A stretch of DNA of 64,000 bases from assembly GCF_045037415.1 (NCBI RefSeq), contig NZ_CP173438.1; one strand, written 5' to 3'. Positions within the stretch are counted from its first letter, which is position 1. Each line of letters starts with the position of its first letter. This document shows positions 61,601 through 64,000 of this stretch, one piece after another. The DNA is from Escherichia coli. Lineage in GTDB: Bacteria > Pseudomonadota > Gammaproteobacteria > Enterobacterales > Enterobacteriaceae. Position numbers: made by a program.

Positions 61601-64000
61601 GGCATTTCCGCGAACAAACTGCCCGGTATCACCATTGTCTGCATCTGGTCCCCCTTCCGCGCCGGTATTCACAACCGTGTCGGTTGCCATTGCGCCGGAT
61701 TTGACGGCCTGCCAGCCCTTCTCATTAATGACGGTACCCGTTGCAATCCCGCCTTCATGTACCCACTGCTCACCGCCGTTCAGAGTGGTATTCACTGCCT
61801 GCCCCTGAAGGCTCTGTCCTCCTCCGGCACTGATAACCGTGTCTGAAACGCTTCCTCCGGCATTCACTCTCTGAAGACCACCACCGGTGACAGTAGTGTT
61901 GTTGGCGATACCGCCATTTTGTATCCATTGTCCGCCGGTATTGGCCTCGTTATCCGGCCCATACTCCAGCCCGGTACTGATGGTCATTCCGTTGGCCGTA
62001 CCGAGGACAATCTGGTTGTCATGATTTGTCAGTGTTCCGTCGTTCACGGTTTCTCCCGCCTGTACAACCGTGTCAGCAGCCAGTGCCGGGACTGATGTGA
62101 CAGCAGCAAGAGACAGTGCAACCGCCACACCGGCGCGTTTTCCCCGTGAGCGGGCCAGTTCGGAGGCCACCACCAGGGTGCCCGTAATGTGATTCCATAC
62201 CAGCCTGTAGCTGGTGTTCAGATGTCGTTTCATCAGCTTTTCCTTACAGAGGGTGAATAAAAAAGCCGGTACCCACAAAAGTGGATACCGGCAGGTACAA
62301 AACAGCATGGTCAGATAAAGTGGTTTTTCCCGGACATAAATGCTTCCCCTCTCTCATCCGCCAGAGAAGTATCAGTCCGTTGTGTGCAATTCCGTTCTGC
62401 ATGATGAAGAGATTCAGCTGCCTTTTCGCAGACCATTAACCACTATAAACGATCGATGGTAACGATCGATACCTGTTTTATCGATCGTTTTATTCTATTA
62501 ACAGCAGAGCAGTCACGCAAGAGAAACAGGAGGGGGATGGAGTGTTTGTATCATGTTTTCAGTTGGTTAACGCAATGTAATCAGGCATTTCCCCTGGCAG
62601 AGTGTTCAGAAGAAAATCCAGTTCCATACAGCGCGGGCAACAGAGACCACCGTGTCACGGACGGCACGCAGAACCGTGCGTGCAACAGAGGCAATACAGA
62701 CGCTCTCCGCCGTGTCAAATATCCGGTCCACCGCACCGGTAAACTGTTCACGGGCCTGAACCGGACAGATTCCGTGCGCAGCTCGTCCTGCAGGCGGGTC
62801 ATCAGGGGACTGGCGGCATGGTCGGGAAGTGCTGTCATGAGCGCACTGACCAGCGTATCCAGTTCCCAGCCGGTGCGGGCCGATACGGCCACAACCGGAT
62901 GTACGGGCCGGAACAGACGGAATACCGCCTCCGTTTTCTCCCGAATGTTCTGTGCCTGTGCGGGAGAAGGCTGAATGCCGGCCATATCCCATTCATGGCA
63001 GGGCTCCGTTTTGTCGGCCTGCGTCACCACAAACAGCACCTGCTGATGTCCCCGGTGCAGGATGTGTCGCCAGAAATACTCATCCACAGACAGGGCACGG
63101 TCATCGGCTTTAATCAGCCACAGTACCAGGTCAAGTTCAGGCAGAATGTCACGGTACAGGGCTTCATACTCTGCATCCCTGTTCCGGCTCTCGCCCACCC
63201 CGGGCAGGTCAGTGATAACCATGCTGTGACCATGGCCACTCAGACGGAAGCGCCGTACTTCCCGGGTGCCGGCGTGAACATCACTGACCGGGGTGACCTC
63301 CCCCTGAAACAGTGCATTACAGAGTGAGGATTTACCGGCCCCGCTTTTACCCATAATGCCAATCACGGGTTCGTGACTGGTGAGTTTGCGCAGATGTTCC
63401 AGGATGTGACGGGAAAGCGAGTAAGGCAGGGAGGAGAGCGGTTTTTCAATTGCCTCAATGGCATCAGACGGATTCATACATGTATTCCCGGTGAAAAAAG
63501 ACAAAACCCCCGCACACCGGAAAGGTGGCGGGGGACTCACGGAGATAATATATGTCTGAAATTATCTGGAATGTCGGTACCTTTTATACTCTTCAACAAT
63601 CAGGTCATGCAGCATTTCGCCGGTACTGAGTCTTCTGACCCTCGATAATTCTTTGAGCTGCGCCCTGGTTTCTGCGTCAAGAAAAAACTGTACATTGACT
63701 TTATCTTCCTGCATTTTTTTGTACTTGCGCTGCGCCTTGGCCTTATTGAAACTGTTTCTGAAATTTTTTATATCGTCAGGTGAGGTGAGTGGACAGGTAA
63801 CCCATATGTCAAATGAAAGGTGGATTGCGTGGTAAATATCAGCAGAACCAGGAAAACTGGCCAGTTTTTCCAGTGCAATATTTTTTCCCTTCAAATAATT
63901 CCATGTCCATATGCATTCATGTTCGTTCTCCGGGAGGAGGTAACTGAAAGGACTCTTTGATTTAAATGCCCGTATCCATCTGTCTTTGGTCTGGATTATC

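Follow-up and report, generated by a model that had tools for sequence, protein, structure and literature searches.

The window examined here is a stretch of 64,000 nucleotides of Escherichia coli DNA, which carries near its end a gene for a YeeP-like GTPase, read on the minus strand and followed by the gene of an Ag43/Cah autotransporter. The features of this part of the window are as follows.

62606..63477, minus strand: YeeP-like GTPase gene, most likely the ST131 leuX island's full-length orthologue of yeeP; 872 nt in the window, where it is out of frame
63477..62761, minus strand (frame -2): frame with residues 1-239, 100% identical to the intact allele in tblastn, holding the G domain with P-loop, switch motifs and G4/G5
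62758..62609, minus strand (frame -1): frame with residues 241-290, 100% identical to the intact allele in tblastn, holding the conserved C-terminal tail ...AVRDTVVSVARAVWNWIFF
62252..62488, minus strand: IS102/IsrC small-RNA region (Rfam match) separating the GTPase gene from cah; contains three GATC sites
59387..62233, minus strand: Ag43/Cah autotransporter gene, downstream of the GTPase gene

The minus-strand ORF 62581..63540 comprises 319 aa and contains an Era-like G domain (Pfam MMR_HSR1, E = 1.3e-14) with the P-loop GKSGAGKS and a DLPG motif, in agreement with the G1 (GxxxxGKS) and G3 (DxxG) patterns and with a preliminary description of this DNA, in which the P-loop and switch motifs of this ORF were regarded as intact. 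The GTG at 63540 is not the true start of the gene, which is the ATG at 63477; the C-terminus of the intact relatives (...WNWIFF) corresponds to the stop of the second frame at 62606, not to 62581. The same description had placed the plausible C-terminus in the frame of ORF 62606..62992, to which both the intact relatives and tblastn point; no intact orthologue was found to end together with ORF 62581..63540. The allele WP_001553935.1 of strain 4/1-1 is intact, with 873 nt and 290 aa, and is one base longer than the version in the window. Over 902 columns of the DNA alignment between the two, a single difference was observed, namely one base missing in the window (CCGGTCTCAGG in the intact allele vs. 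CCGGT-TCAGG, with the gap between window positions 62760 and 62759). The frameshift reported previously is thus present in the sequence, as the two frames matched by tblastn also demonstrate; its position had been estimated at 62770-62785, whereas the actual shift at 62759/60 lies 10-25 nt off, to the left of that estimate. The span given for the gene, 62606..63477, has exactly the coordinates of the CDS annotated by PGAP as “GTPase family protein, frameshifted” on identical DNA in RefSeq E. coli chromosomes (window 63477..62606). Translated as written, the product would continue after residues 1-240 with 58 unrelated ones and would lack the conserved C-terminal tail.

Family and island context of the GTPase gene

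In all likelihood, the gene is an intact yeeP orthologue of full length, an ordinary island GTPase of E. coli ST131. Its 290-aa product is predicted to be an Era/Der-like P-loop GTPase, which would bind and hydrolyse GTP and which ends in a conserved arginine-rich hydrophobic tail that may bind membranes. In K-12, yeeP (b1999) lies in the CP4-44 cryptic prophage and, like the gene in the window, directly upstream of isrC and flu/agn43; the 141 aa that it still encodes match residues 150-290 of the intact allele with 99% identity. However, the K-12 gene is a 426-nt 3' remnant without the G1-G3 motifs, whereas the gene in the window is full length and one base away from intact. The wording of the preliminary description, that the gene would be a frameshifted pseudogene “as in other CP4-44-like copies”, is therefore loose, as K-12 yeeP is truncated at the 5' end and not frameshifted. 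The proposed membership in the YeeP/YfjP/YkfA family agrees with the alignment of the K-12 paralogues YfjP (b2632, CP4-57) and YkfA (b0253, CP4-6), which are 52% and 51% identical, respectively, to the intact allele over their full length (287 vs. 290 aa). They have in common with it the P-loop, DLPG, the G4 motif QADK/QSDK and the C-terminal AVRxTVVSVARAVW tail. In their CP4-type islands, yfjP and ykfA, both genes for putative GTP-binding proteins, each precede a DUF932 gene; they differ from the gene in the window in being paralogues in other islands, with no Ag43 gene separating the GTPase and DUF932 genes. A more distant relationship joins the protein to Era, Der (EngA) and MnmE, which belong to the same G-domain fold family (Pfam MMR_HSR1). 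The best relatives with solved structures are Der and Era (E about 1e-8, residues 35-237), but the scores are far under the NCBIfam cut-offs (50 bits vs. 237 for Era), and the window GTPase is without a KH or second G domain and has a different C-terminal tail. In a literature search for functional studies of YeeP, YfjP or YkfA, none was found, and the proteins appeared in three incidental mentions only. A role in defence, as in the dynamin-like Eleos/LeoABC systems, was also considered and rejected: PADLOC returned weak G-domain matches only (LeoBC, E = 1.2e-8 over residues 10-126 only; LeoA, E = 5.8e-5), and the 290-aa GTPase has no full-length match to the ~600-aa LeoA/LeoBC profiles.

Annotation of identical loci and of K-12, together with the Rfam IS102 match, puts the gene in the position expected of a CP4-type island module, in which the order is GTPase, Ag43 with isrC, DUF932, antirestriction, RadC-like, DUF987 and YeeU/CbtA genes. 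The three GATC sites (62451, 62464 and 62483) lie upstream of the Ag43/Cah gene, within the IS102/IsrC match, and resemble the Dam/OxyR phase-variation switch of agn43. The DUF905 gene at ~59121-59316 is “frameshifted” in all relatives, including strain 4/1-1; being common to that strain, this frameshift falls outside the methylation-site pattern described below and may represent a real pseudogene. With respect to the GTPase gene, a genuine pseudogene, as proposed in the preliminary description, would mean that a real deletion of 1 nt in the lineage of the strain inactivated it. The deletion is indeed present in the sequence, PGAP calls identical records “frameshifted”, and genes of such islands frequently decay, as the truncated yeeP of K-12 and the neighbouring DUF905 gene, frameshifted in all relatives, illustrate. 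Nevertheless, this view is unlikely to be correct when the data on the surrounding sites and on other assemblies are taken into account.

The Eco31I-type system and its altered sites

The missing base lies in a recognition site of the Eco31I/EcoMI type, and the island carries genes for a system of this type. PGAP places the genes in the Alw26I/Eco31I/Esp3I family, their products being an m6A and a C5 methyltransferase together with the cognate endonuclease. The genes of the system and the altered sites in the window are listed below.

44933..47925, plus strand: gene of the Eco31I-type restriction endonuclease, interrupted at 45518-46767 by an ISEc52 copy of 1250 bp
47938..49128, minus strand: M2 methyltransferase (m5C, GGT-m5C-TC), protein identical to that of strain 4/1-1, with one synonymous SNP at 47950
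49121..50743, minus strand: M1 methyltransferase, Eco31I-type (m6A, GAG-m6A-CC), protein identical to that of strain 4/1-1
62756..62763, no strand assigned: corrupted Eco31I/EcoMI site in the GTPase gene; plus strand of the reference CTGAGACCG, window CTGA-ACCG, with the gap between 62759 and 62760
35633..35639, no strand assigned: second corrupted Eco31I site, GAGACC changed to GAGAACC, extra A at 35636
18362..18368, no strand assigned: third corrupted Eco31I site, GGTCTC changed to GGTTCTC, extra T at 18364

Forde et al. (2015; PMC4659465) describe the EcoMI system of the ST131 strain EC958, which is located on GI-leuX and shows 100% identity to Eco31I. The 5' cytosine of GGTCTC is the predicted target of M2, M1 methylates the adenine of GAGACC, and in EC958 the GAGACC adenines were 100% methylated (PMC4659465). 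The order of genes on GI-leuX (McrBC, endonuclease, m5C methyltransferase, m6A methyltransferase) is the same in the window, and the likeness to EC958 is drawn from this order and from family naming; the window differs from the EcoMI system in that its endonuclease gene is interrupted by ISEc52. With its endonuclease gene disrupted and its two methyltransferase genes intact, the system may have been reduced to methylation. At codon 240 of the GTPase gene, read on the minus strand, GGTCTC has lost its inner C, where the m5C is placed. Following the motif assignment of PMC4659465, this C is the base modified by a methyltransferase that the window itself encodes intact.

About 60 kb of the window was compared with strain 4/1-1 and the group II intron with strain p4A. 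Four differences from these closest references were observed, three of which are indels of 1 nt inside Eco31I sites (at 18364, 35636 and 62759/60), each creating an apparent frameshift. The extra T at 18364 splits ltrA, the reverse transcriptase/maturase gene of the group II intron (17741..19265, plus strand; ORFs 17741-18385 and 18357-19265), the intact product of which is WP_001189123.1 in strain p4A. Similarly, the extra A at 35636 splits a GRP family sugar transporter gene (35146..36151, minus strand; ORFs 35146-35682 and 35564-36151). The only position outside Eco31I sites at which the window departs from strain 4/1-1 is 47950, a synonymous T/C SNP close to the 3' end of the m5C methyltransferase gene. 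Given 84 site nucleotides in about 60,500, the probability of three out of four differences lying within Eco31I sites by chance is estimated at ~1e-8. The position of all three indels at Eco31I sites, and of the missing base exactly at the methylated C, argues against a genuine pseudogene. Most sites in the window (11 of 14) are correct, and one of them, at 53725, lies in an 11-nt context, CCGGTCTCAGG, identical to that of the GTPase site. Since sites remain correct even in the same context, the error appears stochastic, not deterministic.

Several larger elements were also observed in the window. A 2.6-kb ISEc12 copy (IS21 family, istA/istB) at 51816-54398, lacking in strains 4/1-1 and Esc10, is found at the identical position in strain 439 from Taiwan. 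Another copy of ISEc52, at ~16359-19813, houses the group II intron (about 17085-19355); in strain 4/1-1 this insertion sequence is present without the intron. Colinearity with 4/1-1 indicates that fimB, at ~7800-10300, is interrupted by an ISL3-family element (ISEc53), with the fim operon at lower coordinates; this interruption is a marker of ST131 clade C.

Disagreement between assemblies and the origin of the missing base

For the comparison across records, the GTPase site is referred to as A, the sugar transporter site as B, and a third deletion, found in CCGGTCTC just outside the window, as C. The -1 form of site A was observed in 31 of 4,457 matching RefSeq records, and a +1 form (GAGAACC) in strains 439 and Esc28. 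The extra A at site B occurs in 10 records, which are not nested with the carriers of the GTPase deletion, and the deletion at C in four. In strain 4/1-1 and other listed ST131 records (81009, H105 and others, several with older accession numbers) the base missing at site A is present. The disagreement is most evident within clones. The “Esc” assemblies have one common ISEcp1-CTX-M-15 insertion, and most of their chromosomes are of 5,156,475-5,156,542 bp; their pattern is not nested, as Esc10 carries A, B and C, Esc7 and Esc25 B only, Esc1, Esc16 and Esc26 A and C, and the others A only. Esc7 has the intact GTPase gene WP_001553935.1, and Esc10 (5,156,501 bp) differs from this member of the same clone (5,156,537 bp) at three positions in 26,179 nt, all three at the m5C:G pair of Eco31I sites; when Esc10 is compared with 4/1-1, three of five differences are at the motif. 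The Taiwanese clone 447/439/463 has the ISEc12 insertion of the window, and its GTPase site is -1 in 447 and +1 in 439. Errors at sites A and B occur together in 98215, 447 and Esc10; none of these is colinear with the window, in which an additional ISEc52 copy occupies 45518-46767. Carriers of the GTPase deletion thus form no consistent descent group, and assemblies of one clone may be -1, +1 or intact, neither of which would be expected of an inherited lesion.

The deletion is also found outside this allele. It is identical in three diverged paralogous alleles, two of them within one genome, that of strain 98212, in two paralogous islands, which likewise argues against a single inactivating mutation. 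Such a distribution could suggest gene conversion spreading one real deletion among paralogous islands, in line with the identical 3' halves of both alleles in strain 98212. However, the allele of 98194 is set apart by SNPs of its own on either side of the deletion (70 nt upstream, 49 nt downstream), and the +1 variant and the intact sister assemblies would be left unexplained, so that gene conversion between paralogous islands can be discarded. With the same deletion in diverged paralogues, one of which has private flanking SNPs, neither inheritance nor gene conversion explains the pattern. Programmed -1 frameshifting, by which the frame would be restored, was rejected as well, since the slippery heptamer X XXY YYZ is absent at the shift, CGG TTC AGG. 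Taken together, these last two possibilities, gene conversion and programmed frameshifting, are the least credible of those considered.

Another possibility is that the changes are real and that the Eco31I-type methyltransferases, or a residual endonuclease, make GGTCTC a hot spot for recurrent and reversible indels and C-to-T changes. C-to-T changes are known to arise by deamination of m5C, and at the m5C position they were observed in Esc10, Esc7 and 439, the last of which reads GGTTTC at two further Eco31I sites. Recurrence at one site would also yield non-nested patterns. However, this hypermutation would require ~20% of sites to be altered among near-identical isolates that have 0-1 other differences per 26-60 kb, +1 and -1 changes both occur at the same base pair, and no such changes were found in the compared listed ST131 records with the same system (4/1-1 in detail). 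We know of no mechanism by which m5C yields indels. If hypermutation were nevertheless true, the Eco31I-type system would make its own sites hypermutable, switching genes such as that of the GTPase on and off in ST131, but we regard this as highly improbable. A separate difference was noted in strain 439, where the equivalent of window position 47887, in the endonuclease gene, reads GATT, vs. GATC (a Dam site) in the window and in 4/1-1; this may be a methylation-linked miscall or a real SNP.

The explanation that accommodates these observations best, and that is very probably correct, is an error of the sequence consensus at a methylated site, not a lesion in the organism. It assumes that the two methyltransferases modify neighbouring base pairs of one site, one per strand, as m5C on GGT-C-TC and m6A on GAG-A-CC. 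In reads of native DNA, most plausibly obtained by nanopore sequencing, the double modification would disturb the signal in both orientations, where platform and signal-level cause are both inferred. The consensus at some GGTCTC sites would then drop the C, add a base, or read C as T, and the removal of one base at the codon 240 site would make an intact GTPase gene look frameshifted. Three observations favour this reading and make the pseudogene proposed in the preliminary description improbable: it is the methylated C that is missing; within a single clone, assemblies disagree on the site (-1, +1 or intact); and no indel in the window, of the three observed, lies outside an Eco31I site. Methylation-induced errors surviving in nanopore-only bacterial assemblies have been documented (PMC11610573, PMC11610603). 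The similarity to the present case is that these errors were located at strain-specific motifs, varied among isolates of one outbreak clone and persisted in the consensus. The reported errors differ in that they were mainly purine/pyrimidine substitutions (PMC11610573, PMC11610603), whereas those described here include +1/-1 indels creating false pseudogenes, and affect GGTCTC/GAGACC, a motif in which m5C and m6A occupy adjacent base pairs. Besides the 11 correct Eco31I sites in the window and the prevalence of substitutions in those papers, two results count against the consensus error. In a literature search, no report of nanopore errors at GGTCTC/GAGACC specifically was found, and a search on the accession numbers of the affected assemblies, concerning their sequencing platform, returned nothing. 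As the platform comes from inference and no report is available for GGTCTC, the consensus error is put forward as very probable and not as certain.

Consequences for annotation and typing of ST131

Of the 14 Eco31I sites in this window, three have indels of 1 nt that lead to apparent pseudogenes, in ltrA, the sugar transporter gene and the gene of the YeeP-like GTPase, and at least 33 RefSeq “complete” E. coli records have a false-looking frameshift at the GTPase site. If the consensus error is accepted, then GGTCTC sites in strains carrying the system would inflate the number of pseudogenes counted, the cgMLST distances and the SNP/indel calls made in outbreak studies, and masking or re-polishing of these sites would eliminate the inflation. 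The biology of the locus would then be ordinary, that of an intact island GTPase gene, and the practical point concerns data quality and annotation: in assemblies of strains with an EcoMI-type system, GGTCTC sites can hold false indels and, with them, false pseudogenes.
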